This document shows positions 3,056 through 51,833 of a DNA stretch of 64,000 nucleotides, one piece after another. The position numbers and the translations under genes are program-made. The stretch is from Escherichia coli (GTDB taxonomy: Bacteria > Pseudomonadota > Gammaproteobacteria > Enterobacterales > Enterobacteriaceae), in assembly GCF_045037415.1 (NCBI RefSeq), contig NZ_CP173438.1, one strand, 5' to 3'. Below the pieces are notes generated by a model that saw nothing but the letters and a program-made list of their open reading frames with translations, did not search any database and was not told the origin of the DNA. The first letter of the stretch is position 1. Every line of letters starts with the position of its first letter.

Positions 3056-3333
3056 ATGATAATGAATTTCAGACACAAGGGATTGCGTGACTTGTTTCTT
3101 CTCGGCAAAACCTCCGGCGTTATACCGACGCAAGTCAAACGATTACGCCACCACTCGCTGTGATTGATGCAGCATGCTGTCTTGCTGATATCGATATGCC
3201 CGGTTACCGACTACATCCGTTAAGCGGCGATCGCGATGGAATTTGGGCGATATCTGTCTCGGGCAACTGGCGAATCACATTTGAATTCGTCAATGGCGAT
3301 GCATACATACTGGATTACGAGGACTATCACTGA
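3056..3333 (+). pseudogene. HigB-like (RelE/ParE superfamily) toxin gene disrupted by a frameshift near 3158-3163
   Basis: Frame A 3056..3163 = MIMNFRHKGLRDLFLLGKTSGVIPTQVKRLRHHSL*; frame B 3160..3333 = [57 protein letters not shown]; stop overlaps the yddM ATG (tgATG); pattern matches plasmid-maintenance-killer HigB family as recalled. Confidence 0.6.
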
Positions 3334-3617
3334 TGAAAATGGCCAATCATCCCCGCCCGGGGGACATTATTCAGGAATCACTGGACGAACTTAATGTCAG
3401 CCTGCGCGAGTTTGCCAGAGCAATGGAAATTGCGCCCTCAACGGCAAGCCGATTGCTGACCGGAAAAGCAGCTTTGACGCCAGAAATGGCAATAAAACTT
3501 TCCGTGGTGATCGGCAGTTCGCCGCAAATGTGGCTGAATCTGCAAAATGCCTGGAGTCTGGCAGAGGCGGAAAAAACGGTGGATGTGTCGCGACTGCGCC
3601 GTCTGGTTACGCAATAA
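3333..3617 (+). CDS. yddM: HigA-like XRE-family HTH antitoxin / putative transcriptional regulator (94 aa)
   Basis: ORF 3333..3617; HTH motif [26 protein letters not shown]; positioned immediately 3' of the HigB-like frames. Confidence 0.88.
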
Positions 3618-3666: not shown

Positions 3667-4320
3667 TTATATCCCTTCTTCACTCTCTTTTTTCGCTTCT
3701 GCCTTCTCGATTTCACGATACCAGCGCGGATGGTGTTTCTTCGCCCAGCGACGGCTCACCTTCCCTTCGATCATCCCTTTAATCGATCCTTTCACCCAGA
3801 ATGCCATATACATATGGATCAGGATGGCGTGGATCAGGATGATACCCGCAGCCGCATGGATCAGCAGGCTATAACGGACAACCTGTATCGGGAAGTACTG
3901 CGCAAAGTACGGACGCCAGATAATCACTCCGGTCACCAGCAGCACGAAAATCATGCTCATGATTGACCAGAACATCATCTTTTGCCCGGCGTTGTACTTA
4001 CCGACATCCGCCACTTTGTGCTCATTGCCTTTTAATACTTCGACAATGTTCAACAGCCACGGAATATCTTTCTTATCCGGGATGTTGTGATGCACAAAAC
4101 GCACAAACATAAACATCAGCGCGACGAAAATCGCAATGCCGAAGAACGGGTGCAAAATGCGTCCCATCTGCGGCGTACCGAAGGTTTGCGTCAGCCATTG
4201 CAGCGTCGGGAAGAAGAACGAAATCCCGGACAGCGCCACCAGGAAGAAGCAAATCACCACGGTCCAGTGACAGGCGCGATCAATAAATTTGGTGCGCACA
4301 ATCATTTTCGACTTACTCAT
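3667..4320 (-). CDS. fdnI: Formate dehydrogenase-N gamma subunit, cytochrome b556 (217 aa)
   Basis: ORF 3667..4362 trimmed to the [12 protein letters not shown] start; membrane protein; start overlaps end of fdnH. Confidence 0.92.
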
Positions 4321-5197
4321 GATTTCCCTCCTCCTCATCGTCCACTTCCTTATTCGGGCCAATACCGATGTAGTGGAAAATCAACCCGGCAAAAGTGGCA
4401 ATAAAGCCAGCCGCTGCCAGCGGTTTCAACGCGCCTTTCCACAGGCTTACCGAGGTATCGATCTTCGGATCTTTCGGCAGACCATGATACAGCTCCGGCT
4501 GATCGGCGTGATGCAGCACGTACATAACGTGCGTACCACCGACCCCTTCCGGGTTGTAGACGCCAGCATGTTCGTAACCACGCGCTTTCAGTTTCGCCAC
4601 GCGCTGTTCCGCCAGCTCCAGCATCTCCTTCTTGGTGCCGAAGTGGATAGCCCCGGTCGGACAGGTTTTCACACAAGCCGGTTCCTGGCCGACGCTGACG
4701 CGATCGACACAGAGCGTGCATTTATATACCCGGTTATCCTCTTTGTTGAGGCGCGGAATATTAAACGGACACCCGGCAATGCAGTAACCACAGCCGATGC
4801 AGTTTTCCGACTGGAAATCGACAATCCCGTTAGCGTACTGAATGATTGCACCAGCAGACGGGCATGCCTTCAGGCAGCCCGGATCTTCACAGTGCATACA
4901 GCCGTCTTTACGGATCAGCCACTCCAGCTTGCCGTTCTGTTCGGTTTCGCTAAAGCGCATCACCGTCCAGGACTTGGCGCTCAGATCGGCGGGGTTATCG
5001 TAAACCCCGACGCAGTGCCCCACTTCATCACGGATGTCGTTCCACTCCGAACACGCCACCTGACAGGCTTTACAGCCGATACAAGTGGAAACGTCGATAA
5101 GTTTCGCGACTTCTGCTTTGTAATCACGCACCTGAGAAGGCGGCGTGATGGAGTTAGTTGCGGACCTTTTGATAATGTCCTGCGTTTCCATAGCCAT
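4313..5197 (-). CDS. fdnH: Formate dehydrogenase-N beta subunit, 4Fe-4S ferredoxin-type (294 aa)
   Basis: ORF 4313..5197; multiple CxxCxxCxxxCP iron-sulfur motifs ([23 protein letters not shown]). Confidence 0.93.
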
Positions 5198-5209
5198 CTG
5201 TTCGCCCCC

Positions 5210-8200
5210 TTACGCCTTCTCGATGTTTACTAAGAACGCTTTATATTCCGGCGTTTGCGAGTTTGCATCACCGACATTCGGCGTCAGAGTGTTAGCGATA
5301 TAACCTTTACGCGCGACACCTTCAAAGCCCCAGTGGATTGGAATACCCACCGTTTCAACCTGCTGACCGTTTACATTCAGCGGTTTCAGACGGCGCGTTA
5401 CCACAGCCACCGCGCGGATAAAGCCACGCTTGCTGGAGACAGTGACACGATCGCCATTGGCAATGCCTTTCGCCGCCGCCAGCGTTTCGCTGATTTCCAC
5501 AAACTGTTCCGGCTGAGCAATTGCGTTGAGCAATGCGTGCTTGGTCCAGGTGTGGAAGTGCTCCGTCAGACGATAGGTCGTACCCACATACGGGAACTGC
5601 TCTTTTTTACCCATCCGCAGCGCGTCTTGTTCATACAGACGAACAACCGGGTTAGACACCACGTTCGGATGCAACGGGTTAGTGCCCAGCGGCGTTTCAA
5701 TTGGCTCGTAGTGTTCCGGGAACGGACCTTCCGCCATTTTGTTGATGGCAAACAGGCGTCCCATCCCTTCCGGTTGCATGATAAACGGCCCGGTTGGCGT
5801 ACCCGGCGCGGCATTGCCGAAGTCCGGAATATCGTTACCCGTCCACTTGCTACCGTTCCACTGGATCAGCATCCGTTTCGGATCCCACGGTTTACCGTTG
5901 ATATCCGCCGAAGCACGGTTGTAGAGTACGCGACGGTTGAGCGGCCACGCCCAGGCCCATCCCAGCGTATTCCCCAGACCGGACGGGTCGGAGTTATCGC
6001 GGTTAGCCATCTGGTTGCCCTGCTCGGTCCAGCTACCGGTGTAGATCCAGCAAGAAGATGCGGTTGTACCGTCATCACGCAGATGTGCAAAGCTACTCAG
6101 CAACTGACCTTTCTTCGCAATCAGCACGCCATTAGCGTCATAGAGATCTTCCAGCGCATAGCCGTTATTCTCTTTCGCCACTTCATCAGACTGCGGTTCG
6201 TGCGGCTGCTTGTAGTTCCAGCTCATCTTCATCAGCGGTTCTACGCCTTTACCACCTTCGGCCTGGTACAGCTCGCGCAGATGATGGTAGATACCCGCCA
6301 GAATTTCGCCGTCGTTACGTGCTTCGCCCGGCGCGTCCTGACCTTTCCAGTGCCACTGCAACCAGCGACCGGAGTTAGCGATAGAACCATCTTCTTCAGC
6401 AAAGCAGGTCGAAGGCAGACGGAATACTTCAGTCTGAATAGATGCCGGATCGACATCGTTCGACTCGCCGTGGTTCTGCCAGAAGGTAGAGGTTTCAGTC
6501 ACCAGCGGATCGATAACCACCATGTACTTCAGCTTGCTCAGGCAGCTCACCACTTTGTTTTTGTCCGGGAAGGACGCAACCGGGTTAAAGCCCTGGCAGA
6601 AATAACCGGTGACTTTACCTTCATCCATCATGTTGAAATACTTGATGACGTCGTAGGTCTGGTCCCACTTCGGCAGCCAGTCGTAGCCCCAGTTGTTCTC
6701 TTTCTGCGCGGCATCGCCGTAGAAAGATTTCATCAGGCTAACGAAAAACTTCGGATAGTTGCTCCAGTAGTTCACCTGATCAGCCAGCGTCGCTTTCGGC
6801 GTGTTCGCTTCCAGATACGACTGCAAATCAACCTGTTTTTCTGACGGCAGCGTCAGATAACCTGGCAGGCTGGTAGAGAGCAGGCCTAAGTCAGTCAGGC
6901 CCTGAATGTTGGAGTGACCACGCAATGCGTTCACGCCGCCACCGGCCATACCCATGTTACCGAGCAGCAACTGGATCATCGCCATCGTACGGATGTTCTG
7001 CGCACCCACGGTGTGCTGCGTCCAGCCCAGCGCGTACAGGAAGGTGGTTGTGCGATCCGGTGCGCTGGTGGAGGCCAGCACTTCACACACTTTCAGGAAG
7101 TCGGCTTTTGGCGTACCGCAAATGTTTTCTACTACGTCCGGCGTGTAGCGGGAAACGTGCGCTTTCAGCAGATTCCATACACAGCGCGGATGAGTCAGCG
7201 TGTCATCGCGTTTCGCATAGCCGTTTTCATCGAACTGATAGTTCCAGGACGACTTATCGTATTGACGTTTTTCAGCGTCGTAGCCGCTGAACAGACCGTC
7301 TTCGAAAGCAAAATCATCACGCACCAGCAGGCTGGCGTTGGTGTAATGCTTAACGTATTCGGCGTTGATTTTGTTGTTTTCGATCAGGTAGCGCAAAACG
7401 CCAGACAGGAACGTAATGTCCGTACCGGAACGAATAGGTGCGTAAATATCCGCCACAGAAGCGGTACGCGTAAAACGGGGATCGACAACGATCAAGGTTG
7501 CATCGTTGTTGTTTTTCGCTTCCATCGCCCAGCGGAAACCGACGGGATGCGCTTCAGCAGCGTTACCGCCCATCACCATTACGACGTTAGCGTTTTTGAT
7601 ATCCACCCAGTGGTTGGTCATCGCACCGCGACCAAATGTTGGAGCAAGACTTGCTACCGTTGGTCCGTGTCAGACGCGCGCCTGGTTGTCTACCGCCAGC
7701 ATCCCGAGGGAGCGGGCAAATTTTTGAGTCAGCATCCCGGTTTCGTTGCTGGCACCGGAAGCACACAGCATACCGGTAGAAAGCCAACGGTTTACCGTTA
7801 CGCCCTGCTCGTTCTTTTCAATAAAGTTAGCGTCACGGTCGGCTTTCATCAGCTTCGCAATACGGGAGAATGCTTCTTCCCAGCTAATGCGCTGCCATTT
7901 GTCAGAACCTGGCGCACGATATTCCGGGTAGCGCAGACGGTTTTCGCTGTTGACATAATCCAGCAAACCGGCCCCTTTCGGGCACAGCGCACCACGACTT
8001 ACCGGATGATCCGGGTCACCTTCAATGTGATAAATCGCTTCTCTGGCGTTTTTCGCGCCATCACCCAGGCTATACATCAATAGCCCGCAACCTACGGAAC
8101 AGTATGTGCAGGTGTTACGGATCTCTTTCGCGCGTAATAATTTGTAGTTTCGCGCCTGAGCCAGTGCTTGCTTCGGGGCAAAGCCCAATGCTGCTACTGT

Positions 8201-8257
8201 TGTTCCCGCCATACCGCCCGCGCAGATTTTAAAAAATTGTCTGCGACTGACGTCCAT
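5210..8257 (-). CDS. fdnG: Formate dehydrogenase-N alpha subunit, selenoprotein (1015 aa) with in-frame UGA at 7670..7672 read as selenocysteine; Tat signal peptide
   Basis: Two in-frame ORFs 7670..8257 (ends ...VDNQARV then TGA) and 5210..7621; intervening codons translate HGPTVASLAPTFGRGA with no other stop; N-terminus MDVSRRQFFK is a twin-arginine motif. Confidence 0.93.
7625..7669 (-). promoter_or_regulatory. SECIS-like region immediately 3' of the fdnG UGA codon
   Basis: mRNA segment CACGGACCAACGGUAGCAAGUCUUGCUCCAACAUUUGGUCGC contains complementary GACCAA/UUGGUC and GCAAG/CUUGC arms; bacterial SECIS elements sit directly downstream of the UGA. Confidence 0.55.
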
Positions 8258-8488
8258 TGCTTTCCTCTTTTTTCAGGGGTATTACTGCGCGAGGAAACTA
8301 ACAGTAAAATTCTGAATCTTTTTGCGCGAAATCAAAAAGAACACGTGTTTGCCACAAAATAATCCGCCTGCGCAAATTGACCTACCTCAATAGCGGTAGA
8401 AAAACGCACCACTGCCTGACAGGCCAGTTAAAAAAATGCTATAAAATTCAGCTTAATTTTTAACGGCAAGAGAGACAAAACAGCGAGC
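8258..8488. promoter_or_regulatory. Divergent fdnG / yddG promoter region with FNR-like site (8322..8335) and NarL-like 7-2-7 heptamer pair (8383..8398)
   Basis: ttgcgcgaaatcaa resembles TTGAT-N4-ATCAA; tacctca-at-agcggta resembles inverted TACYYMT heptamers. Confidence 0.45.
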
Positions 8489-9370
8489 ATGACACGTCAA
8501 AAAGCAACGCTCATAGGGCTAATAGCGATCGTCCTGTGGAGCACGATGGTAGGATTGATTCGCGGTGTCAGTGAGGGACTCGGCCCGGTCGGCGGCGCAG
8601 CTGCTATCTATTCATTAAGCGGGCTGCTGTTAATCTTCACGGTTGGATTTCCGCGTATTCGGCAGATCCCGAAAGGCTATTTACTCGCCGGGAGTCTGTT
8701 ATTCGTCAGCTATGAAATCTGTCTGGCGCTTTCCTTAGGGTATGCGGCGACCCGTCATCAGGCGATTGAAGTGGGGATGGTGAACTATCTATGGCCCAGC
8801 CTGACAATTCTCTTTGCCATTCTGTTTAATGGTCAGAAAACCAACTGGCTGATTGTACCAGGATTATTATTAGCCCTGGTCGGCGTCTGCTGGGTGTTAG
8901 GCGGTGACAATGGGTTACATTATGATGAAATTATCAATAATATCACCACCAGCCCATTGAGTTATTTCCTGGCGTTCATTGGGGCGTTTATCTGGGCAGT
9001 CTACTGCACAGTAACGAATAAATACGCACGCGGATTTAACGGAATTACCGTTTTTGTCCTGCTAACGGGAGCAAGTCTGTGGGTTTACTATTTTCTTACG
9101 CCACAACCAGAAATGGTATTTAGCACGCCCGTCATGATTAAACTCATCTCTGCGGCATTTACCTTAGGATTTGCTTATGCTGCATGGAATGTCGGTATAT
9201 TACATGGCAACGTCACCATAATGGCGGTAGGTTCGTATTTTACGCCCGTCCTTTCCTCAGCGCTTGCAGCCGTGCTGCTCAGCGCCCCGCTGTCGTTCTC
9301 GTTCTGGCAAGGCGCGCTAATGGTCTGCGGCGGTTCCCTGCTCTGCTGGCTGGCGACACGTCGTGGCTAA
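8489..9370 (+). CDS. yddG: Aromatic amino acid exporter, DMT family (293 aa)
   Basis: ORF 8489..9370; MTRQKATLIGLIAIVLWSTMVGL recognised as YddG; polytopic membrane protein. Confidence 0.88.
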   Translation: MTRQKATLIGLIAIVLWSTMVGLIRGVSEGLGPVGGAAAIYSLSGLLLIFTVGFPRIRQIPKGYLLAGSLLFVSYEICLALSLGYAATRHQAIEVGMVNYLWPSLTILFAILFNGQKTNWLIVPGLLLALVGVCWVLGGDNGLHYDEIINNITTSPLSYFLAFIGAFIWAVYCTVTNKYARGFNGITVFVLLTGASLWVYYFLTPQPEMVFSTPVMIKLISAAFTLGFAYAAWNVGILHGNVTIMAVGSYFTPVLSSALAAVLLSAPLSFSFWQGALMVCGGSLLCWLATRRG

Positions 9371-9642
9371 AATAATTGTCGGGTCTACGGCCCGGCAGTT
9401 AATCAGATAAATTCTGACAATATTAAAAAATAAATTTCAAATACCAGAAAGTCATTTTAGTTACATTTAGTAACACATATCTGTCTGTTTAATCCACATT
9501 CTGCCCCCGCAGTTACGCTTTCTTATCTATTCTTCTAATCAGCACTTCACCTGATTCATCCTTAATTCTAATAACTGGCTATTGCGCCTTACCTCCTGTT
9601 TTGTCTTTTTTTCATTACCAATGTGTGCATGTGAGGAACAAT

Positions 9643-11031
9643 ATGGCACTGCAAAATGAGAAAAATAGTCGTTATCTTTTACGCGACTGGAAACCAGAAA
9701 ATCCGGCCTTCTGGGAAAATAAAGGAAAGCATATTGCACGAAGAAACCTCTGGATATCAGTCAGTTGTCTACTTCTTGCCTTCTGTGTCTGGATGCTATT
9801 TAGCGCAGTTACTGTTAATCTCAATAAAATCGGTTTTAATTTTACTACCGATCAACTCTTTTTATTAACCGCATTACCCTCCATTTCTGGCGCATTATTG
9901 CGTGTCCCCTACTCCTTTATGGTGCCTATATTCGGTGGACGCCGATGGACGGTTTTTAGTACTGCAATCCTGATTATTCCTTGCGTCTGGCTCGGAATTG
10001 CCGTGCAGAATCCGAATACTCCTTTTGGGATATTTATCGTTATCGCTTTGCTATGCGGTTTTGCAGGTGCGAACTTTGCTTCGAGCATGGGCAATATCAG
10101 TTTCTTCTTTCCAAAAGCCAAACAAGGGAGCGCTCTTGGGATTAATGGCGGATTAGGAAACTTAGGTGTAAGTGTAATGCAGCTGGTTGCACCGCTGGTC
10201 ATTTTTGTCCCCGTATTTGCCTTTCTCGGCGTCAATGGCGTACCGCAGGCCGACGGTTCGGTGATGTCGCTGGCGAATGCCGCATGGATTTGGGTGCCAT
10301 TACTGGCGATTGCCACGATCGCCGCCTGGTCAGGGATGAATGATATCGCCAGTTCACGCGCCTCAATTGCCGACCAGCTCCCTGTCTTACAACGCCTGCA
10401 TCTCTGGCTGCTGAGCCTGCTTTACCTTGCCACCTTCGGTTCGTTTATCGGTTTTTCTGCGGGTTTTGCCATGCTGGCAAAAACCCAGTTCCCGGATGTG
10501 AATATTCTGCGCCTGGCGTTCTTTGGCCCATTTATCGGTGCCATCGCGCGATCGGTTGGTGGTGCTATTTCCGATAAATTCGGCGGCGTGCGGGTGACGT
10601 TGATCAACTTCATTTTTATGGCGATTTTCAGCGCCCTGCTGTTCCTTACCTTACCGGGCACAGGCTCCGGTAATTTCATCGCATTTTACGCCGTATTTAT
10701 GGGGCTGTTTCTGACCGCGGGTCTGGGAAGTGGTTCTACTTTCCAGATGATCGCCGTCATCTTTCGCCAGATAACAATTTATCGGGTGAAGATGAAAGGC
10801 GGTAGTGATGAGCAAGCTCAAAGAGAAGCCGTCACCGAAACGGCAGCCGCTCTGGGCTTTATCTCAGCCATTGGCGCAGTGGGCGGCTTTTTTATTCCGC
10901 AGGCGTTTGGCATGTCGCTCAATATGACCGGCTCTCCGGTGGGCGCGATGAAAGTGTTTTTAATCTTCTACATCGTTTGTGTGCTACTGACCTGGCTGGT
11001 TTATGGTCGGCGGAAGTTCAGCCAAAAATAA
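9643..11031 (+). CDS. narU: Nitrate/nitrite transporter, MFS (462 aa)
   Basis: ORF 9601..11031 trimmed to ATG 9643 (MALQNEKNSRYLLRDW); multi-TM MFS protein. Confidence 0.88.
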   Translation: MALQNEKNSRYLLRDWKPENPAFWENKGKHIARRNLWISVSCLLLAFCVWMLFSAVTVNLNKIGFNFTTDQLFLLTALPSISGALLRVPYSFMVPIFGGRRWTVFSTAILIIPCVWLGIAVQNPNTPFGIFIVIALLCGFAGANFASSMGNISFFFPKAKQGSALGINGGLGNLGVSVMQLVAPLVIFVPVFAFLGVNGVPQADGSVMSLANAAWIWVPLLAIATIAAWSGMNDIASSRASIADQLPVLQRLHLWLLSLLYLATFGSFIGFSAGFAMLAKTQFPDVNILRLAFFGPFIGAIARSVGGAISDKFGGVRVTLINFIFMAIFSALLFLTLPGTGSGNFIAFYAVFMGLFLTAGLGSGSTFQMIAVIFRQITIYRVKMKGGSDEQAQREAVTETAAALGFISAIGAVGGFFIPQAFGMSLNMTGSPVGAMKVFLIFYIVCVLLTWLVYGRRKFSQK

Positions 11032-11125
11032 GAGATCGATGCCTGACACGTCTTATCAGGCTACAACCGTGTCGCATCCGACAAGGCATCAGATCCCAAT
11101 TCATTCCTGGAGCAGGAGTTATGTC

Positions 11126-14100
11126 ATGAGTAAACTTTTGGATCGCTTTCGCTACTTCAAACAAAAGGGCGAAATCTTTGCCGATGGTCACGGACAGGTG
11201 ATGCATAGCAACCGCGACTGGGAGGACAGCTATCGCCAGCGTTGGCAGTTCGACAAAATCGTGCGTTCCACCCACGGTGTTAACTGTACAGGCTCCTGTA
11301 GCTGGAAAATCTACGTTAAAAATGGTCTGGTGACCTGGGAAATCCAACAGACCGATTACCCGCGCACTCGCCCTGACCTGCCGAATCACGAACCTCGCGG
11401 CTGCCCGCGTGGCGCAAGTTACTCCTGGTATCTCTACAGCGCGAACCGCCTGAAATACCCGCTCATTCGTAAACGACTGATTGAACTGTGGCGCGAAGCC
11501 CTCAAGCAACACAGCGATCCGGTACTGGCGTGGGCATCGATTATGAACGATCCGCAAAAGTGCCTGAGCTACAAACAAGTGCGTGGACGCGGTGGTTTTA
11601 TCCGCTCCAACTGGCAGGAGCTAAATCAGCTGATTGCCGCCGCTAACGTCTGGACCATCAAAACTTACGGCCCGGATCGCGTTGCCGGTTTCTCGCCGAT
11701 TCCGGCGATGTCGATGGTTTCTTACGCTGCCGGAACACGCTATCTGTCGCTGTTAGGTGGCACCTGTTTAAGCTTCTACGACTGGTATTGCGACCTGCCG
11801 CCCGCCTCGCCGATGACCTGGGGCGAGCAAACCGACGTACCGGAATCTGCCGACTGGTATAACTCCAGTTACATCATCGCCTGGGGGTCTAACGTACCGC
11901 AGACACGTACGCCGGACGCCCATTTCTTTACCGAAGTACGCTACAAAGGCACTAAAACCATCGCCATTACCCCTGACTACTCTGAAGTGGCCAAATTGTG
12001 CGACCAGTGGCTGGCACCGAAACAAGGCACTGATAGTGCCCTGGCAATGGCAATGGGCCATGTCATTTTAAAAGAGTTTCATCTCGATAATCCCAGCGAT
12101 TATTTTATCAACTACTGCCGCCGCTACAGCGACATGCCGATGCTGGTAATGCTGGAACCTCGCGACGACGGCAGCTACGTTCCCGGGCGCATGGTCCGCG
12201 CATCTGACCTGGTGGATGGACTGGGCGAAAGCAATAATCCGCAGTGGAAAACCGTGGCAGTTAATACCGCAGGTGAATTGGTAGTGCCGAACGGTTCGAT
12301 TGGTTTTCGTTGGGGAGAAAAAGGCAAATGGAACCTGGAATCCATTGCCGCCGGTACGGAAACCGAATTGTCGTTAACCCTGCTCGGTCAACATGACGCC
12401 GTTGCAGGCGTGGCCTTCCCCTACTTTGGAGGCATTGAAAATCCGCATTTTCGCAGCGTAAAACACAATCCTGTCCTGGTGCGCCAATTGCCCGTTAAAA
12501 ATCTGACATTAGCCGATGGTAGCACCTGTCCGGTGGTCAGCGTTTATGATCTGGTACTGGCAAATTACGGCCTCGATCGCGGGCTGGAAGATGAAAACAG
12601 CGCGAAAGATTACGCTGAAATCAAACCTTACACCCCTGCCTGGGGCGAGCAAATTACCGGCGTACCGCGCCAGTATATTGAAACCATCGCCCGTGAATTT
12701 GCCGATACCGCTCATAAAACGCATGGGCGCTCGATGATTATTCTCGGCGCAGGTGTTAACCACTGGTATCACATGGACATGAACTACCGCGGGATGATCA
12801 ATATGCTGATCTTCTGCGGTTGTGTCGGGCAAAGCGGCGGCGGCTGGGCGCACTATGTCGGTCAGGAAAAACTGCGCCCACAAACCGGCTGGTTGCCGCT
12901 GGCCTTTGCGTTCGACTGGAACCGTCCACCGCGCCAGATGAACAGCACCTCGTTTTTCTACAATCACTCCAGCCAGTGGCGCTATGAAAAAGTCACCGCG
13001 CAGGAATTGCTCTCACCGCTCGCCGATGCCAGTAAATACAGCGGTCACCTGATTGATTTCAACGTTCGCGCCGAACGTATGGGCTGGCTCCCTTCTGCGC
13101 CGCAGCTGGGGCGTAACCCGCTCTCCCTGAAAGCTGAAGCCGACAAGGCCGGATTATCCCCCACAGAATTTACCGCCCAGGCGCTGAAATCGGGCGATTT
13201 ACGTATGGCCTGCGAACAACCAGATAGCGGCAGCAATCATCCGCGTAATTTGTTTGTCTGGCGTTCTAACCTGCTTGGCTCCTCCGGCAAAGGCCACGAG
13301 TATATGCAGAAGTATCTGCTGGGGACCGAAAGCGGGATTCAGGGAGAGGAACTCGGTGCCAGCGACGGGATCAAACCAGAAGAAGTCGAGTGGCAAACTG
13401 CGGCGATTGAAGGCAAGCTCGACCTGCTGGTGACGCTCGATTTCCGCATGTCCAGTACCTGCCTGTTCTCCGATATCGTTCTGCCCACCGCCACCTGGTA
13501 CGAAAAAGACGATATGAATACCTCGGATATGCATCCGTTTATTCATCCGCTTTCTGCGGCGGTCGATCCGGCGTGGGAATCACGCAGCGACTGGGAAATC
13601 TACAAAGGTATCGCTAAAGCCTTTTCGCAAGTGTGCGTGGGGCATCTCGGCAAAGAAACCGACGTGGTATTACAACCACTGCTGCATGACTCCCCGGCAG
13701 AGCTTTCACAGCCGTGTGAAGTGCTCGACTGGCGCAAAGGCGAGTGCGATCTGATTCCAGGCAAAACCGCGCCGAATATTGTGGCGGTGGAGCGCGACTA
13801 CCCTGCTACCTATGAACGCTTTACCTCGCTCGGGCCATTGATGGACAAACTTGGCAACGGAGGTAAAGGGATTTCGTGGAATACCCAGGATGAAATTGAT
13901 TTCCTCGGTAAACTCAATTACACCAAGCGTGATGGCCCGGCACAGGGGCGTCCGCTGATTGATACCGCGATTGATGCCTCAGAAGTGATTCTGGCGCTGG
14001 CACCGGAAACCAACGGCCATGTTGCAGTCAAAGCGTGGCAAGCGCTGGGCGAGATCACCGGACGCGAACATACCCATCTGGCGCTGCACAAAGAGGACGA

Positions 14101-14866
14101 GAAGATTCGCTTTCGCGATATTCAGGCGCAGCCGCGTAAAATTATCTCCAGCCCCACATGGTCTGGTCTGGAAAGCGATCACGTCTCCTATAATGCGGGA
14201 TACACCAACGTTCATGAGCTAATTCCGTGGCGCACACTGTCGGGCCGTCAACAGCTTTATCAGGATCATCCGTGGATGCGTGCCTTTGGTGAAAGCCTGG
14301 TGGCTTATCGCCCGCCTATCGACACCCGCAGTGTCAGTGAAATGCGCCAAATCCCGCCAAACGGCTTCCCGGAAAAAGCCCTTAACTTCCTGACACCGCA
14401 CCAGAAATGGGGCATTCACTCAACCTACAGTGAAAACCTGCTAATGCTGACGCTCTCTCGCGGTGGACCGATTGTCTGGATCAGCGAAACCGATGCCCGT
14501 GAACTGACCATTGTCGATAACGACTGGGTGGAAGTGTTTAACGCCAATGGCGCGCTGACGGCCCGCGCGGTGGTCAGCCAGCGTGTACCGCCGGGCATGA
14601 CCATGATGTATCACGCTCAGGAACGCATTATGAATATTCCTGGTTCGGAAGTAACCGGCATGCGCGGCGGCATTCATAACTCGGTCACCCGCGTTTGTCC
14701 GAAACCAACACATATGATTGGCGGTTACGCGCAGCTGGCCTGGGGCTTTAACTACTACGGCACTGTCGGCTCTAACCGCGACGAATTCATCATGATCCGC
14801 AAGATGAAGAACGTTAACTGGCTGGATGATGAAGGTCGCGATCAGGTTCAGGAGGCGAAAAAATGA
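11126..14866 (+). CDS. narZ: Respiratory nitrate reductase Z alpha subunit (1246 aa)
   Basis: ORF 11003..14866 trimmed to MSKLLDRFRYFKQKGE; molybdopterin oxidoreductase motifs; stop overlaps narY start (ATGA). Confidence 0.93.
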   Translation: MSKLLDRFRYFKQKGEIFADGHGQVMHSNRDWEDSYRQRWQFDKIVRSTHGVNCTGSCSWKIYVKNGLVTWEIQQTDYPRTRPDLPNHEPRGCPRGASYSWYLYSANRLKYPLIRKRLIELWREALKQHSDPVLAWASIMNDPQKCLSYKQVRGRGGFIRSNWQELNQLIAAANVWTIKTYGPDRVAGFSPIPAMSMVSYAAGTRYLSLLGGTCLSFYDWYCDLPPASPMTWGEQTDVPESADWYNSSYIIAWGSNVPQTRTPDAHFFTEVRYKGTKTIAITPDYSEVAKLCDQWLAPKQGTDSALAMAMGHVILKEFHLDNPSDYFINYCRRYSDMPMLVMLEPRDDGSYVPGRMVRASDLVDGLGESNNPQWKTVAVNTAGELVVPNGSIGFRWGEKGKWNLESIAAGTETELSLTLLGQHDAVAGVAFPYFGGIENPHFRSVKHNPVLVRQLPVKNLTLADGSTCPVVSVYDLVLANYGLDRGLEDENSAKDYAEIKPYTPAWGEQITGVPRQYIETIAREFADTAHKTHGRSMIILGAGVNHWYHMDMNYRGMINMLIFCGCVGQSGGGWAHYVGQEKLRPQTGWLPLAFAFDWNRPPRQMNSTSFFYNHSSQWRYEKVTAQELLSPLADASKYSGHLIDFNVRAERMGWLPSAPQLGRNPLSLKAEADKAGLSPTEFTAQALKSGDLRMACEQPDSGSNHPRNLFVWRSNLLGSSGKGHEYMQKYLLGTESGIQGEELGASDGIKPEEVEWQTAAIEGKLDLLVTLDFRMSSTCLFSDIVLPTATWYEKDDMNTSDMHPFIHPLSAAVDPAWESRSDWEIYKGIAKAFSQVCVGHLGKETDVVLQPLLHDSPAELSQPCEVLDWRKGECDLIPGKTAPNIVAVERDYPATYERFTSLGPLMDKLGNGGKGISWNTQDEIDFLGKLNYTKRDGPAQGRPLIDTAIDASEVILALAPETNGHVAVKAWQALGEITGREHTHLALHKEDEKIRFRDIQAQPRKIISSPTWSGLESDHVSYNAGYTNVHELIPWRTLSGRQQLYQDHPWMRAFGESLVAYRPPIDTRSVSEMRQIPPNGFPEKALNFLTPHQKWGIHSTYSENLLMLTLSRGGPIVWISETDARELTIVDNDWVEVFNANGALTARAVVSQRVPPGMTMMYHAQERIMNIPGSEVTGMRGGIHNSVTRVCPKPTHMIGGYAQLAWGFNYYGTVGSNRDEFIMIRKMKNVNWLDDEGRDQVQEAKK

Positions 14867-16407
14867 AAATACGTTCGCAAGTCGGCATGGTGCTTAACCT
14901 CGATAAATGTATCGGCTGCCATACCTGTTCGGTGACCTGTAAAAACGTCTGGACCGGTCGCGAAGGCATGGAGTACGCATGGTTTAACAACGTCGAAACC
15001 AAACCGGGCATTGGTTATCCGAAAAACTGGGAAGATCAGGATGAGTGGCAAGGTGGCTGGGTGCGTGATGTGAATGGCAAGATACGCCCGCGTCTGGGCA
15101 GCAAGATGGGCGTAATAACCAAAATTTTCGCCAACCCGGTAGTGCCGCAGATTGACGATTACTACGAACCTTTCACCTTCGACTACGAACATTTGCATAG
15201 CGCGCCGGAAGGCAAACATATTCCCACCGCCCGTCCGCGTTCACTGATTGACGGCAAACGGATGGACAAAGTGATCTGGGGCCCAAACTGGGAAGAACTG
15301 CTGGGCGGCGAATTTGAAAAACGAGCCCGCGACCGCAACTTCGAGGCCATGCAAAAGGAGATGTACGGGCAGTTTGAAAACACCTTCATGATGTACCTGC
15401 CGCGCCTGTGCGAACACTGCCTCAATCCCAGCTGCGTGGCGACCTGCCCCAGCGGCGCTATCTACAAACGCGAAGAAGACGGCATTGTGCTGATTGATCA
15501 GGATAAATGCCGTGGCTGGCGTTTGTGCATTAGCGGTTGTCCGTACAAAAAAATCTACTTCAACTGGAAAAGCGGCAAGTCAGAAAAATGTATCTTCTGT
15601 TATCCGCGAATTGAGTCCGGTCAGCCAACAGTCTGCTCCGAAACCTGCGTGGGTCGCATCCGGTATCTGGGCGTGCTGCTCTACGACGCCGACCGCATCG
15701 AAGAAGCAGCGAGTACCGAACGAGAGGTCGATCTCTATGAACGCCAGTGCGAAGTGTTCCTCGATCCGCACGATCCCTCAGTGATCGAAGAAGCCCTGAA
15801 ACAAGGTATTCCACAAAACGTGATTGACGCTGCCCAGCGTTCGCCTGTCTACAAAATGGCGATGGACTGGAAACTGGCGCTACCGCTGCACCCTGAATAC
15901 CGCACCCTGCCGATGGTCTGGTACGTTCCTCCGCTGTCACCGATTCAGTCCTACGCTGATGCGGGAGGTTTGCCGAAAAGCGAAGGCGTGCTGCCCGCCA
16001 TCGAAAGCCTGCGTATTCCGGTGCAATATCTCGCCAATATGTTGAGTGCCGGTGATACCGGTCCGGTACTGCGGGCGCTGAAACGGATGATGGCGATGCG
16101 CCACTATATGCGTTCACAAACCGTGGAAGGCGTTACTGATACTCGTGCCATCGACGAAGTAGGTCTGAGCGTCGCCCAGGTCGAAGAGATGTATCGTTAC
16201 CTCGCCATTGCCAACTATGAAGATCGTTTCGTCATCCCGACAAGCCATCGGGAAATGGCGGGCGATGCCTTCGCAGAACGCAACGGCTGCGGTTTTACCT
16301 TTGGCGACGGTTGCCACGGTTCGGACAGCAAATTCAACCTGTTCAACAGTAGCCGTATCGATGCCATCAACATCACCGAAGTGCGCGACAAAGCGGAGGG
16401 CGAATAA
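14863..16407 (+). CDS. narY: Respiratory nitrate reductase Z beta subunit, Fe-S (514 aa)
   Basis: ORF 14863..16407; CIGCHTCSVTCK and further Cys clusters. Confidence 0.93.
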   Translation: MKIRSQVGMVLNLDKCIGCHTCSVTCKNVWTGREGMEYAWFNNVETKPGIGYPKNWEDQDEWQGGWVRDVNGKIRPRLGSKMGVITKIFANPVVPQIDDYYEPFTFDYEHLHSAPEGKHIPTARPRSLIDGKRMDKVIWGPNWEELLGGEFEKRARDRNFEAMQKEMYGQFENTFMMYLPRLCEHCLNPSCVATCPSGAIYKREEDGIVLIDQDKCRGWRLCISGCPYKKIYFNWKSGKSEKCIFCYPRIESGQPTVCSETCVGRIRYLGVLLYDADRIEEAASTEREVDLYERQCEVFLDPHDPSVIEEALKQGIPQNVIDAAQRSPVYKMAMDWKLALPLHPEYRTLPMVWYVPPLSPIQSYADAGGLPKSEGVLPAIESLRIPVQYLANMLSAGDTGPVLRALKRMMAMRHYMRSQTVEGVTDTRAIDEVGLSVAQVEEMYRYLAIANYEDRFVIPTSHREMAGDAFAERNGCGFTFGDGCHGSDSKFNLFNSSRIDAINITEVRDKAEGE

Positions 16408-17102
16408 TGCAGATCCTCAAAGTGCTCGGCCTGTTGATGGAGTACCCAGACGAGTTGTTGTGGGAGTGTAAGGACGACGCGCTGGCGCTTATCCGCCGCG
16501 ACGCGCCGATGCTCACCGATTTTGCACTCGACCTGCTCAACGCCCCGCTGCTGGATAAACAGGCCGAATGGTGTGAAGTGTTTGACCGCGGGCGCACCAC
16601 GTCGCTGCTGCTGTTTGAACATGTTCATGCCGAGTCCCGCGATCGCGGCCAGGCAATGGTGGACCTGCTGGCGGAGTATGAAAAGGTCGGTCTGCAACTG
16701 AATTGTAGGGAACTGCCCGATTATCTACCGCTGTATCTGGAGTATTTAAGCGTACTTCCGGACGATCAGGCGAAAGAAGGATTACTCAACGTTGCGCCGA
16801 TCCTCACCCTGCTTGGCGGACGCTTAAAACAACGCGAGGCACCGTGGTACGCGTTATTTGACGCCCTGTTGCAACTGGCAGGAAGCCCTCTGTCAAGTGA
16901 CAGTGTCACAAAACAGATTCGCAGTGAAGAGCGTGACGACACCCGCCAGGCGCTGGATGCGGTGTGGGAAGAAGAACAGGTGAAGTTTATTGAAGATAAC
17001 GCCACGGCGTGTGACAGCTCGCCGCTTAATCAATATCAGCGACGCTTTAGCCAGGATGTCGCGCCGCAGTATGTCGACATCAGTGCGGGAGGTGGGAAAT
17101 GA
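16407..17102 (+). CDS. narW: Nitrate reductase Z assembly chaperone (231 aa)
   Basis: ORF 16407..17102; start overlaps narY stop. Confidence 0.88.
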
Positions 17103-17779
17103 TTCAGTATCTGAACGTCTTTTTTTACGATATCTACCCGTACTTGTGTGGCACGGTTTTTATCCTTGGAAGCTGGCTGCGCTACGACTACGGGCAGTAC
17201 ACCTGGCGCGCCGCCTCCAGCCAGATGCTGGATAAACGCGGGATGGTGCTGTGGTCAAACTTGTTCCATATCGGCATTTTGGGGATTTTCTTCGGGCACC
17301 TGTTCGGCATGTTAACGCCACACTGGATGTACGCGTGGTTTCTGCCGGTGGCGGTAAAACAGCAGATGGCGATGATCCTCGGCGGAATATGCGGGGTATT
17401 GACGCTGATTGGCGGTGCGGGGCTACTGGTGCGTCGTTTAACAAATCCGCGTATCAGGGCGACGTCTTCTGGTGCGGATATCCTGATCCTCGCCATTTTG
17501 TTAATTCAGTGCATTCTCGGGTTAACCACCATTCCTTTTTCAGCACAACATCCGGACGGCAGTGAAATGATGAAGCTGGTGGGCTGGGCGCAAAGCATTG
17601 TCACTTTCCAGGGCGGTGCATCTACGCATCTTGATGGTGTCGCCTTTATATTCCGCGTTCATCTGGTGCTTGGAATGACCATCTTCCTGCTCTTCCCGTT
17701 CACCCGACTGGTGCATGTCTGGAGCGCGCCGTTTGAGTACTTTACTCGTCGGTATCAGATTGTGCGTTCGCGGCGTTAA
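17099..17779 (+). CDS. narV: Respiratory nitrate reductase Z gamma subunit, cytochrome b (226 aa)
   Basis: ORF 17099..17779; membrane heme protein, overlaps narW stop. Confidence 0.9.
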
Positions 17780-17858
17780 TTCTCACGCGGGCCGGATAGC
17801 CCTTCGCTCTCCGGCCACTTGCAGGCTATGATAGTTCTCCAGCCACAGGAGAACGTTA

Positions 17859-18752
17859 ATGAAACCGCAAGTGTACCACGTCGATGCTTTTACCTCTCAA
17901 CCGTTTCGCGGCAATTCTGCCGGTGTTGTTTTCCCCGCCGATAATCTCAGTGAAGCGCAAATGCAGCTTATCGCCCGCGAGTTAGGTCATTCGGAAACTG
18001 CTTTTCTGCTGCACAGCGACGACAGCGATGTGCGCATCCGCTACTTTACGCCAACGGTTGAAGTGCCAATTTGCGGTCACGCGACGGTGGCTGCGCACTA
18101 TGTACGTTCAAAGGTATTAGGTTTGGGAAATTGCACGGTCTGGCAAACGTCGCTGGCAGGAAAACATCGTGTGACTATCGAAAAGCAAAATGATGATTAT
18201 CGTATTTCGCTGGAACAAGGTACGCCAGGCTTTGAGCCACCACTGACAGGTGAAACACGTGCAGCGATTATCAACGCGCTTCATCTCACTGAGGACGATA
18301 TTCTGCCAGGCTTGCCAATTCAGGTGGCAACAACAGGACACTCAAAAGTGATGATCCCGTTGAAACCAGAAGTGGATATCGACGCCCTTTCGCCTGATCT
18401 TGCTGCGTTGACCGCTATCAGCAAACAGATTGGCTGCAATGGTTTCTTCCCGTTCCAGATCCGCCCAGGCAAAAGCGAAACCGACGGTCGCATGTTCTCG
18501 CCTGCGATTGGTATTGTGGAAGATCCGGTGACCGGGAATGCCAATGGTCCGATGGGCGCATGGTTAGTACATCACAACGTATTGCCCCACGATGGCAACG
18601 TGTTGCGTGTTAAAGGCCATCAGGGGCGCGCATTGGGGCGTGATGGTGTAATTGATGTGACGGTGACAATTCGCGATAACCAACCGGAGAAAGTTACCAT
18701 TTCCGGCACGGCGGTGATTCTATTCCATGCTGAATGGGCCATTGATTTTTGA
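17859..18752 (+). CDS. yddE: PhzF-family isomerase-like protein (297 aa)
   Basis: ORF 17859..18752; recognised as YddE. Confidence 0.85.
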   Translation: MKPQVYHVDAFTSQPFRGNSAGVVFPADNLSEAQMQLIARELGHSETAFLLHSDDSDVRIRYFTPTVEVPICGHATVAAHYVRSKVLGLGNCTVWQTSLAGKHRVTIEKQNDDYRISLEQGTPGFEPPLTGETRAAIINALHLTEDDILPGLPIQVATTGHSKVMIPLKPEVDIDALSPDLAALTAISKQIGCNGFFPFQIRPGKSETDGRMFSPAIGIVEDPVTGNANGPMGAWLVHHNVLPHDGNVLRVKGHQGRALGRDGVIDVTVTIRDNQPEKVTISGTAVILFHAEWAIDF

Positions 18753-20507: not shown

Positions 20508-21644
20508 TTACGAAAGCCCGCTCCCCGCAAGGACTGACGCGAGATAGTTTCTGTCCATGGCTGCTTTTCGCATCTTACGTCTTAACCCTGCCTTGAATAC
20601 CTTATCATTCGTTAAAATATTAATAGCGATGTGCCGTATCCCTGAAAATAATTCTGCGGCGTTTCCTCTTCTTATTTTGCAGTCGTCTTCATTCATTACC
20701 ACGTCCAGACGCCAGTGCAGCTTATTCTCCACGTGCCAGTGGTTTCGGATTGCTGTGGCGAACTTCTCTGCGGTTAAATCAGCAGAACTGATATAATATC
20801 TGACCGTCATTTCTGGCTCTTTCTTTTGTTCTGCTATTATGGACCGAAAGGAGACTGCCACGCATAATTTCTTCAGTCCTTTCCATTCGAACGTGAAATC
20901 AATAAGTTCATCAGGGACATCGCAAACAATATGAAGACGGATTTCTTCTCTGCCGTGACTCTTTTCACTAATGGCGTAACTGTCATGTTCTGGATTATTT
21001 AATTCTTTCAGTGGAAATTTTTCCTCAAAGGCTTTATTAAGCCGCCCCTGATTTCCTTTTACAGCGAATAAATAATCACCGCCCTGTTTTTGTATCTTCT
21101 CTGCAATATCTTTCTGGCAACCCATCGCATCAGTTGTGATGATTTTTCCTTTAATATCCAGCATGTTAAGAAGTTCAGGGATAGGTGTAATTTCATTGGA
21201 TTTCTCATCCGTCCTGATCTGTCCGATGACCAGACTGTGCATTGTTGAGAACGCACTAATGACATGAATCGCTCCCTTGCGGCGACTCTTGTCATAAGAA
21301 TGCCGGAGTGTTTTTCCATCAATTGCGATGACGTCTTTATCATCTGAAGAATGGCAGTCACGCATCCAGTTAATAAAGCACTCGTGAAATTTTGCAGGAC
21401 TGATACAGGATACAACTCTGGCAATGGTATCGTGAACAGGAATACCATTATCAAAATCACCATATTGCTTCAAAAAATCGAGATGTGTTTCCCCAAAATC
21501 CTCTATATCTTCCCAGCCTTCTGCACCCGAAATAACGGCACAAATAGTCAACAGTAGAATATCCGATAATTTATGTTCCACTTTCCAGGCTTGTCTGTAA
21601 TCGGGGATAATAGAAATATGTTCCATCAATTTTTTAAGTTCCAT
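20508..21644 (-). mobile_element. H-repeat-associated protein / ISAs1-family transposase gene (378 aa), AT-rich; element ends not defined
   Basis: ORF 20508..21644; [52 protein letters not shown]... recognised as the YdcC/YhhI/YbfD H-rpt protein family. Confidence 0.82.
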
Positions 21645-27515: not shown

Positions 27516-27747
27516 GGCTGTATTGCTGGCACAACATAGCAACGTTTTTTTGCATAGTGAGGTTTTCGACAGCCAGAGCAACTGCCATTAACTCCAGTTC
27601 GTAGCGGATCCGATTGATTTCATTTAATTGACGTTTTCCCACTTCCGGAACTGTAAATGCTTGCGCTGGTGCGACAAAGAGCGCATTTACCGAAACCAGA
27701 CGTAAGGAACCGGCGCGCCATGCGGACGCGAGGACAGAACCCAACAT
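27511..27747 (-). pseudogene. Short ORF (78 aa), possible remnant of a transcriptional regulator (mcbR-like) gene
   Basis: ORF 27511..27747 with in-frame stop two codons upstream of its start; lies where K-12 (from memory) has curA and mcbR between yncA and yncD; assignment is inference. Confidence 0.3.
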
Positions 27748-27953
27748 CGGTTACGCTGCGTTTGTTGCCCCATAATGCTCTCCTGTGCTTTTGGCATGAA
27801 TCCATCAATAGTAGCAGGCTCACAGGATTGGTTTTGTTTGCAGCCGTCACATCCCCTCTGCAACACGCAATAATTTCATAGAGGAATCCGTTGCTTCGGG
27901 CTGTTTTCGATAGTATTGATAACATCATCATCATTATTTTATCGAGGCCAGAC

Positions 27954-36876: not shown

Positions 36877-37116
<240 letters not shown>

Positions 37117-50498: not shown

Positions 50499-51020
50499 TC
50501 ACACCGTAGCAAAACTAACTGGTTCACCCGCTCCTCGTGGTTCTGCCGACACAGAATGTTTGTTCAGACGGAATACGTCCACCGCCTCAGTTAGTCGTGC
50601 CGCCTGTTCTTCAAGGGACACCGCCGCCGTTGAGGCCTCTTCTACCAGAGAAGCATTCTGTTGCGTCACCTTATCCATTTCAGAAATCGCCTGGCTAACC
50701 TGCGTTATGCCTCGACTTTGTTCACCCGAGGCGGTGGCGATTTCCTGCATGATATGTGTGACACTCGCGACGGCATCAACAATAGTGCACATGGTTTTCC
50801 CTGCCGTTGCCACCTCATCCGATCCCAGGTCAATTAACCTGACTGATTCACTGATCAAGCCTTCAATCTCTTTCGCCGCCTGGGCGCTGCGGCTTGCGAG
50901 TGTCCGTACTTCGCTGGCGACAACGGCAAATCCACGGCCTTGCGAGAGTAACGAATGATTAAACTGGCTAAACCGAATGACGAAAAATTCTGGAAAGCAG
51001 CACGCGATTTCGTCAGGTGA
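50499..51020 (-). pseudogene. 5'-truncated methyl-accepting chemotaxis protein (trg-like) remnant: C-terminal signalling domain only
   Basis: In-frame translation ...[34 protein letters not shown]...VSFATV*; MCP homology starts near 50942; upstream in-frame segment (to stop at 51021..51023) is unrelated and has no ATG/GTG/TTG; no TM, periplasmic or HAMP region. Confidence 0.6.
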
Positions 51021-51099
51021 TTATTTTCGTCCCTAAGGAAACCACATAGGATGCTCACGGGTGCCTGAGACTTTCTGTTTTCAGGCTAACCTGGAATCA

Positions 51100-51145
51100 G
51101 AAAGACGAAGGCCCCGACCGATATTTCTATCAACCGAGGCCAACG

Positions 51146-51175
<30 letters not shown>
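51100..51175 (-). ncRNA. sokB: Expected position of the SokB antisense RNA (approximate)
   Basis: Placement by analogy with hok/sok loci where the antisense RNA overlaps the mok translation-initiation region; exact ends not determinable from sequence. Confidence 0.3.
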
Positions 51176-51354
<179 letters not shown>

Positions 51355-51769: not shown

Positions 51770-51833
51770 CTTCCGATGTAGGCCCGTATTCTTCGCCTGT
51801 ACCACGGGTCGGTTTTAGTACAGGCGTTTTCTT
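51770..51833 (+). ncRNA. rydC: RydC small regulatory RNA
   Basis: cttccgatgtaggcccgtattcttcgcctgtaccacgggtcggttttagtacaggcgttttctt matches the RydC sequence as recalled; terminal hairpin cgcctgtac/gtacaggcg plus U tract; sits between ydcA and cybB. Confidence 0.7.

Follow-up and report, generated by a model that had tools for sequence, protein, structure and literature searches.

Which of the two membrane-bound nitrate reductase loci of Escherichia coli, narK-narGHJI (nitrate reductase A) or narU-narZYWV (nitrate reductase Z), occupies positions 9643-17779 of the 64,000-nucleotide E. coli stretch analysed here (the window), and is it intact? The best explanation overall, of which we are close to certain, is that these positions hold the narU-narZYWV operon, encoding the second membrane-bound nitrate reductase, nitrate reductase Z. 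The locus is intact and ordinary, and it is already known biology. We agree in this with an initial annotation made from the sequence alone, whose limits for the cluster, 9643 and 17779, are exact by both the open reading frames (ORFs) and the RefSeq annotation. As a textbook case of a duplicated operon for respiration, known since 1990 and found in almost every E. coli genome, it matters little in itself, and the check serves to fix the annotation of ~8 kb of the window. The cluster consists of five genes:

9643-11031, + strand: narU, NarK-family major facilitator superfamily (MFS) nitrate/nitrite transporter, 462 amino acids
11126-14866, + strand: narZ, catalytic alpha subunit of nitrate reductase Z, 1246 amino acids
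14863-16407, + strand: narY, Fe-S beta subunit, 514 amino acids
16407-17102, + strand: narW, NarJ-type assembly chaperone, 231 amino acids
17099-17779, + strand: narV, dihaem cytochrome b gamma subunit, 226 amino acids

Assignment to nitrate reductase Z

All five proteins exceed the curated NCBIfam cut-offs that were applied to them. NarU scores 1020.8 bits against NF011608, 'nitrate/nitrite transporter NarU' (cut-off 836, aligned over 1-462 of 462), and 341.2 bits against the NarK-family model TIGR00886 (cut-off 311.7); NarZ scores 2330 bits against the narG equivalog TIGR01580 (cut-off 1084), NarY 981 bits against the narH equivalog TIGR01660 (cut-off 524), and NarV 414.5 bits against the narI equivalog TIGR00351 (cut-off 105.6). 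NarW reaches 504.8 bits with NF011628 (cut-off 410, aligned over 1-231 of 231) and 116.4 bits with the narJ model TIGR00684 (cut-off 59.35). The closest solved structure to NarZ is NarG (1q16_A, 2415 bits, full length), and the NarJ-family chaperone gene, narW, lies between the beta and gamma genes, as befits a respiratory enzyme of the NarGHI type within the type II DMSO-reductase family.

The alignment with the narGHJI paralogs that the initial annotation had proposed as its check was run after fetching both K-12 nar loci, with the proteins compared by BLASTP. NarU is 99.4% identical to K-12 NarU versus 75.8% to NarK, NarZ 99.3% to K-12 NarZ versus 78.8% to NarG, NarY 99.6% to K-12 NarY versus 78.7% to NarH, NarW 95.7% to K-12 NarW versus 56.2% to NarJ, and NarV 88.1% to K-12 NarV versus 75.6% to NarI. 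Nowhere do NarZ, NarY, NarW and NarV group with NarG, NarH, NarJ and NarI; each is nearer its K-12 Z counterpart, and the cluster stands at the same yddG...yddE position. Indeed the K-12 locus (b1469-b1465) has the same five genes in the same order, strand relations and lengths (462/1246/514/231/226 amino acids), and the same neighbours, with yddG and fdnGHI upstream and yddE and nhoA downstream. The E. coli narK-narGHJI locus (1Q16) shares the cofactor ligands and the gene layout, a transporter followed by alpha, beta, delta and gamma, at 56-79% identity.

A megablast with the stretch 9000-18500 recovered it from 5,412 of 5,426 complete E. coli genomes, with best matches reported as 100.0% identical. 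E. coli SK1144 (NZ_AP018784.2) is among these best matches, and by direct comparison the whole window is collinear with it, with 7 base differences in 64 kb; within the cluster a single base differs, in narU codon 81 (Ile in the window, Val in SK1144). Given this collinearity the RefSeq annotation of SK1144 could be carried over (window position = record position - 2,494,319), and it contains the same five genes, the beta and gamma genes being labelled 'narH' and 'narI'. The five + strand ORFs are intact and without internal stops, as the ORF list, the RefSeq annotation and the translations all show. Longer in-frame starts appear in the mechanical ORF list for narU (TTG 9601) and narZ (ATG 11003), but we favour the annotated starts because the family models match end to end, the N-terminus is held in common with NarG, and a Shine-Dalgarno-like GGAG motif lies upstream of all five starts.

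The wording 'second copy' is borne out from outside the window. By blastn, narZ DNA matches SK1144 at two places; among the 5,426 complete genomes it is found in 5,424, again at a median of two places in each; a paralogous narG locus exists elsewhere in the same genome, and the wording is therefore justified. The high density of Fe-S and molybdoenzyme genes, for which the initial annotation had offered this cluster as an explanation, is accounted for by the nar genes together with fdnGHI.

As a separate observation, 25-38 matches to the narU-narZYWV region fall on plasmid-labelled RefSeq E. coli records, which is unexpected for a core chromosomal operon; mislabelling of replicons, errors in assembly and genuine transfer are the possible explanations.

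Gene junctions and probable translational coupling

The four enzyme genes overlap at each junction, although not quite as the initial annotation had it. Its ATGA overlaps, given for all three junctions, stand at narZ/narY (AAAAATGAAAA, 4 bases) and at narW/narV (GGAAATGATTC, likewise 4 bases), but narY/narW (GAATAATGCAG) is a TAATG with a 1-base overlap, in which the last A of the TAA stop is the A of the ATG. The ATGA given there may reflect the K-12 narGHJI pattern, which runs ATGA, ATGA, TAATG, in contrast to ATGA, TAATG, ATGA in narZYWV. At all three junctions a GGAG-type motif lies 6-10 bases upstream of the start, inside the preceding gene. Among narZ-type loci from Escherichia, Citrobacter, Klebsiella, Enterobacter, Kluyvera, Raoultella and other genera, the narY/narW TAATG overlap is kept in 77 of 79 and the narW/narV ATGA overlap in all 79; the pattern, conserved across enterobacterial genera and distinct from that of narGHJI, may be of small use to others.

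The presence of overlaps at all three junctions, and their conservation across genera, make it reasonable to infer translational coupling: the overlaps probably couple translation of narY, narW and narV to that of the preceding gene, an arrangement that would help hold the subunit ratios fixed. No literature showing coupling in nar operons turned up, in searches none of which was aimed at coupling.

Cofactor ligands and predicted mechanism

The cofactor ligands considered are those of the NarGHI structure 1Q16. NarZ conserves the FS0 ligands His50, Cys54, Cys58 and Cys93 as well as the Mo ligand Asp223, and at 1246 amino acids it fits the description of a Nar alpha subunit (~1,250 amino acids, an N-terminal H-x3-C-x3-C...C FS0 motif, an Asp to Mo). 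The Nar beta subunit has four Cys groups that hold three 4Fe-4S clusters and one 3Fe-4S cluster, a Trp replacing the fourth Cys; in NarY the 15 cluster Cys and the Trp of the 3Fe-4S site are all conserved relative to NarH. NarV keeps the four haem His, aligned to NarI positions 56, 66, 187 and 205. In total 5 of 5 ligand positions of NarG, 16 of 16 of NarH and 4 of 4 of NarI are retained.

From these conserved ligands and the established biochemistry of NarGHI we infer the following mechanism. NarU would act as a NarK-family MFS carrier, bringing nitrate inward and taking nitrite outward. Nitrate reductase Z would be a cytoplasm-facing, quinol-oxidising enzyme with the architecture of NarGHI, composed of NarZ (molybdenum-bis(molybdopterin guanine dinucleotide), Mo-bisMGD, plus the FS0 4Fe-4S cluster), NarY (three 4Fe-4S and one 3Fe-4S) and membrane-embedded NarV (two b haems); NarW, a NarJ-type chaperone, would hold apo-NarZ for cofactor insertion and be absent from the final enzyme. 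Quinol would be oxidised by NarV at the periplasmic side of the membrane, electrons would pass from its two b haems through the Fe-S chain of NarY and NarZ to Mo-bisMGD, and nitrate would be reduced to nitrite at Mo in the cytoplasm, with a contribution to the proton-motive force. The quinol-dependent nitrate reductase activity of NarZYV is predicted by homology; in mutants of E. coli CFT073, NarZYWV-dependent nitrite production has been reported (PMC7005491).

Flanking regions and transcription

The surroundings of the cluster bear on how it may be expressed:

3667-8257, - strand: fdnGHI, transcribed divergently, away from the nar cluster
8489-9370, + strand: yddG, between fdnGHI and narU
9371-9642, + strand: yddG-narU intergenic region, putative narUZYWV regulatory region, 272 bases
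11032-11125, + strand: narU-narZ intergenic region with an imperfect palindrome and the narZ Shine-Dalgarno sequence, 94 bases
17780-17858, + strand: narV-yddE spacer with two hairpins and no T-run

The cluster had been described as beside fdnGHI, which is right as to nearness, but the latter is on the minus strand with yddG and two intergenic regions in between, and the fdnG start is 1,385 bases from the narU start.

The five genes would most likely form one transcript from upstream of narU. The 94-base narU-narZ spacer contains no terminator-like site in our scan. Such a single-operon layout fits the literature: in another E. coli strain, all five transcripts rose, as did promoter activity, through a point mutation located upstream of narU (PMC11417348). 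Across 8200-18200, the consensus promoter scan returned 5 promoter-like sites versus 8.6 expected, below the shuffled mean, and the terminator scan 13 terminator-like sites versus 11.4 expected, no more than chance. About the last 190 of the 272 bases between yddG and narU align with the K-12 sequence upstream of narU; K-12 has yddJ (a pseudogene), yddK and yddL in this interval (~2.2 kb, positions 9062-11288 of the K-12 locus sequence used) in place of the short spacer of the window. The distal part of the narU upstream region is thus variable between strains.

The narU-narZ spacer is 13 bases longer than that of K-12. It contains an imperfect palindrome (~11033-11095), whose long form is matched over 80% or more of the query length in 3,834 of 5,419 genomes, and the spacer RNA folds at -27.4 kcal/mol, with 8 of 200 shuffles folding equally well, which is only weakly distinctive. 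No repetitive extragenic palindromic (REP) element was confirmed here, two REP consensus patterns having matched nothing in the window; the 57-base element of this spacer occurs at one place in SK1144 and at a median of two per genome, in a search insensitive to short repeats. The spacer resembles neither the 515-base narK-narG control region nor the NarS small RNA (sRNA). At the other end of the operon, the narV-yddE spacer RNA folds at -29.9 kcal/mol (z = -2.75), and the terminator scan gave nothing there. Rfam places no RNA family inside the nar cluster, its sole nearby match being a selenocysteine insertion element in fdnG (see below).

Regulation separates the two paralogous loci. The narK-narG region is 515 bases long, regulated, and contains NarS, whereas its narU-narZ counterpart is 94 bases; narXL adjoins narGHJI, and FNR/NarL regulation there compares with constitutive or RpoS-linked expression of narZYWV, whose locus is without a long FNR/NarL-controlled region before the alpha-subunit gene. 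In the literature narZYWV is described as constitutive and not FNR/NarL-controlled (PMC7005491). PMC8139620, with reference to Blasco 1990 and Spector 1999, presents it as a duplication that serves cells under stress and, in Salmonella, depends on RpoS. Taken together, the literature has narZYWV expression either constitutive and low or dependent on RpoS or stress. The Salmonella stiA locus (narZYWV) is the same duplicated operon, RpoS-dependent and stress-related according to the descriptions cited in PMC11417348 and PMC8139620; the 80 loci returned in the cross-species scan described below included no Salmonella locus.

An allelic tract within narV

Compared with K-12 in 200-base bins, the DNA of narU, narZ and narY is mostly 94-98.5% identical, with one bin at 92.5%, but identity drops to 71.5-84% in the middle of narV. 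The drop corresponds to a discrete feature:

17329-17688, + strand: allelic tract within narV, dimorphic in E. coli; the window has the Escherichia-type version

Over its 360 bases there are 91 differences from K-12 (an identity of 74.7%, versus 92.5% in the rest of narV), and its edges are sharp, the 60-base flanks each having only 1-2 differences. The tract holds 22 of the 27 amino-acid differences between the NarV of the window and that of K-12; over the whole gene there are 59 synonymous versus 27 non-synonymous codon differences. With the haem ligands conserved and synonymous changes in excess, both forms of NarV appear functional.

Among 5,454 E. coli records, surveyed with a 321-base query over which sampled lower-band records align for 280 bases only, 1,294 match the window tract at 95% identity or more, 241 at 80-90% and 3,917 at 60-80%; that is, E. 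coli is dimorphic, ~24% being window-type and ~72% K-12-type. A cross-species scan (one genome per species, 80 loci returned, chosen for likeness to the window allele, so that donors of the K-12 type are under-sampled) found the window tract 88.5-97% identical to E. albertii, E. whittamii and Escherichia sp. E1V33, to which the K-12 tract is 73-78% identical. The best outside matches of the K-12 tract, at ~81%, are in the Klebsiella oxytoca group, Citrobacter sedlakii/amalonaticus and Intestinirhabdus. At the protein level the NarV of the window is 98-100% identical to that of other Escherichia species.

It is because these outgroup Escherichia species match the window type that the K-12-type tract looks imported from another enterobacterial genus: the window has the ancestral Escherichia version, passed down by vertical inheritance, while the majority allele of K-12 type looks like an old acquisition whose donor is not among the genomes sampled. 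As a further reading, which we hold to be less likely than not, most E. coli (K-12 and O157:H7 included) may carry a short import within the gene, from an unsampled enterobacterium outside Escherichia, that replaces the central helices of NarV, the quinol-oxidising subunit; about a quarter of strains, this one among them, would keep the ancestral form, and the quinol-site properties of the two might then differ. That it is K-12 narV, and not the narV of this strain, which appears to carry the foreign 360-base tract is relevant wherever K-12 NarV is taken as the E. coli reference. A literature search on narV recombination or phylogroup polymorphism, judged by title, abstract and mentions of narV (1-2 per paper), gave nothing that seemed relevant.

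Two other origins of the tract were considered and rejected. Gene conversion from narI is not indicated at the sites where the alleles differ, narI matching the window at 51, K-12 at 37 and neither at 27, and over the tract both narV alleles share only ~57-73% identity with narI. A foreign origin of the window allele conflicts with its closeness to other Escherichia, as given above.

Two patches in narW, 16429-16548 and 16849-16968, each have ~17-18 differences per 120 bases from K-12, and in these bins the window is nearer than K-12 to Escherichia sp. E1V33; they may be further small recombination tracts.

Alternative explanations

The cluster could be taken for a misnamed nitrate reductase A locus, narK-narGHJI, inasmuch as the equivalog models for narG, narH and narI do not separate the paralogs and RefSeq itself uses the labels 'narH' and 'narI'. 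Protein identities (56-79% to K-12 NarG/H/J/I versus 88-99.6% to the Z set) and neighbouring genes refute this: yddG, yddE and nhoA flank the cluster where narXL, ychS and tyrTV would be expected, the spacer before the alpha gene is 94 and not 515 bases and contains no NarS, and the NarU-specific NF011608 and, for NarW, NF011628 are both exceeded. We regard this possibility as negligible. Hardly more credible, though we would rank it marginally higher, is that this duplicate is in decay or has lost part of its activity, with a damaged narV in this strain, at only 88% identity to the reference. NarV and NarW are indeed more diverged from K-12 than NarU, NarZ and NarY, and the physiological role of nitrate reductase Z has been described as unclear (PMC8139620). 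Yet there are no frameshifts or internal stops, the four haem ligands are in place, the balance of synonymous and non-synonymous differences in narV is as expected under purifying selection, NarV is nearly or fully identical to that of other Escherichia, and the locus is kept in 5,412 of 5,426 genomes.

Returning to an intact narU-narZYWV operon, several points weigh against parts of this account. NarV differs from K-12 by 12%, which is explained by the allelic tract and not by decay. The case for coupling comes from the overlaps, which are a common feature of bacterial operons. No + strand match to the sigma-70 consensus was found in 9371-9642 upstream of narU, and no promoter was located there. 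Finally, the narU-narZ hairpin, which might attenuate or stabilise the transcript, has a z-score of only -1.87. Nothing contradicts the identification of the locus; the weak points concern mechanism only.

Other features of the window

Within fdnG (5210-8257, - strand), Rfam SECIS_3 matches 7617-7675 (- strand) at 84.3 bits versus a gathering score of 63, directly downstream of the known selenocysteine codon of formate dehydrogenase-N, an in-frame TGA (7670-7672) by which the fdnG ORF is split. Between adhP and fdnI, at 3056-3617, a RelE/ParE-family (HigB-like) toxin gene, annotated as frameshifted, adjoins the intact HigA-family antitoxin gene yddM; the two look like a toxin-antitoxin pair that has degraded. 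At 20508-21644 (- strand), between yddH and ansP, is ydcC, a transposase gene of the ISAs1-like ISEc1 family. Annotated remnants at 36877-37113 and 27550-27773 (both - strand) are, respectively, a hicB antitoxin fragment without its N-terminus and fragments of a GntR-family regulator. The methyl-accepting chemotaxis protein gene trg (50499-50942, - strand) is likewise annotated as a fragment without its N-terminus; directly after it comes hokB with the sok antisense RNA (Rfam, 108 bits, 51059-51210), followed by the RydC sRNA at 51770-51833 (Rfam, 90.5 bits).

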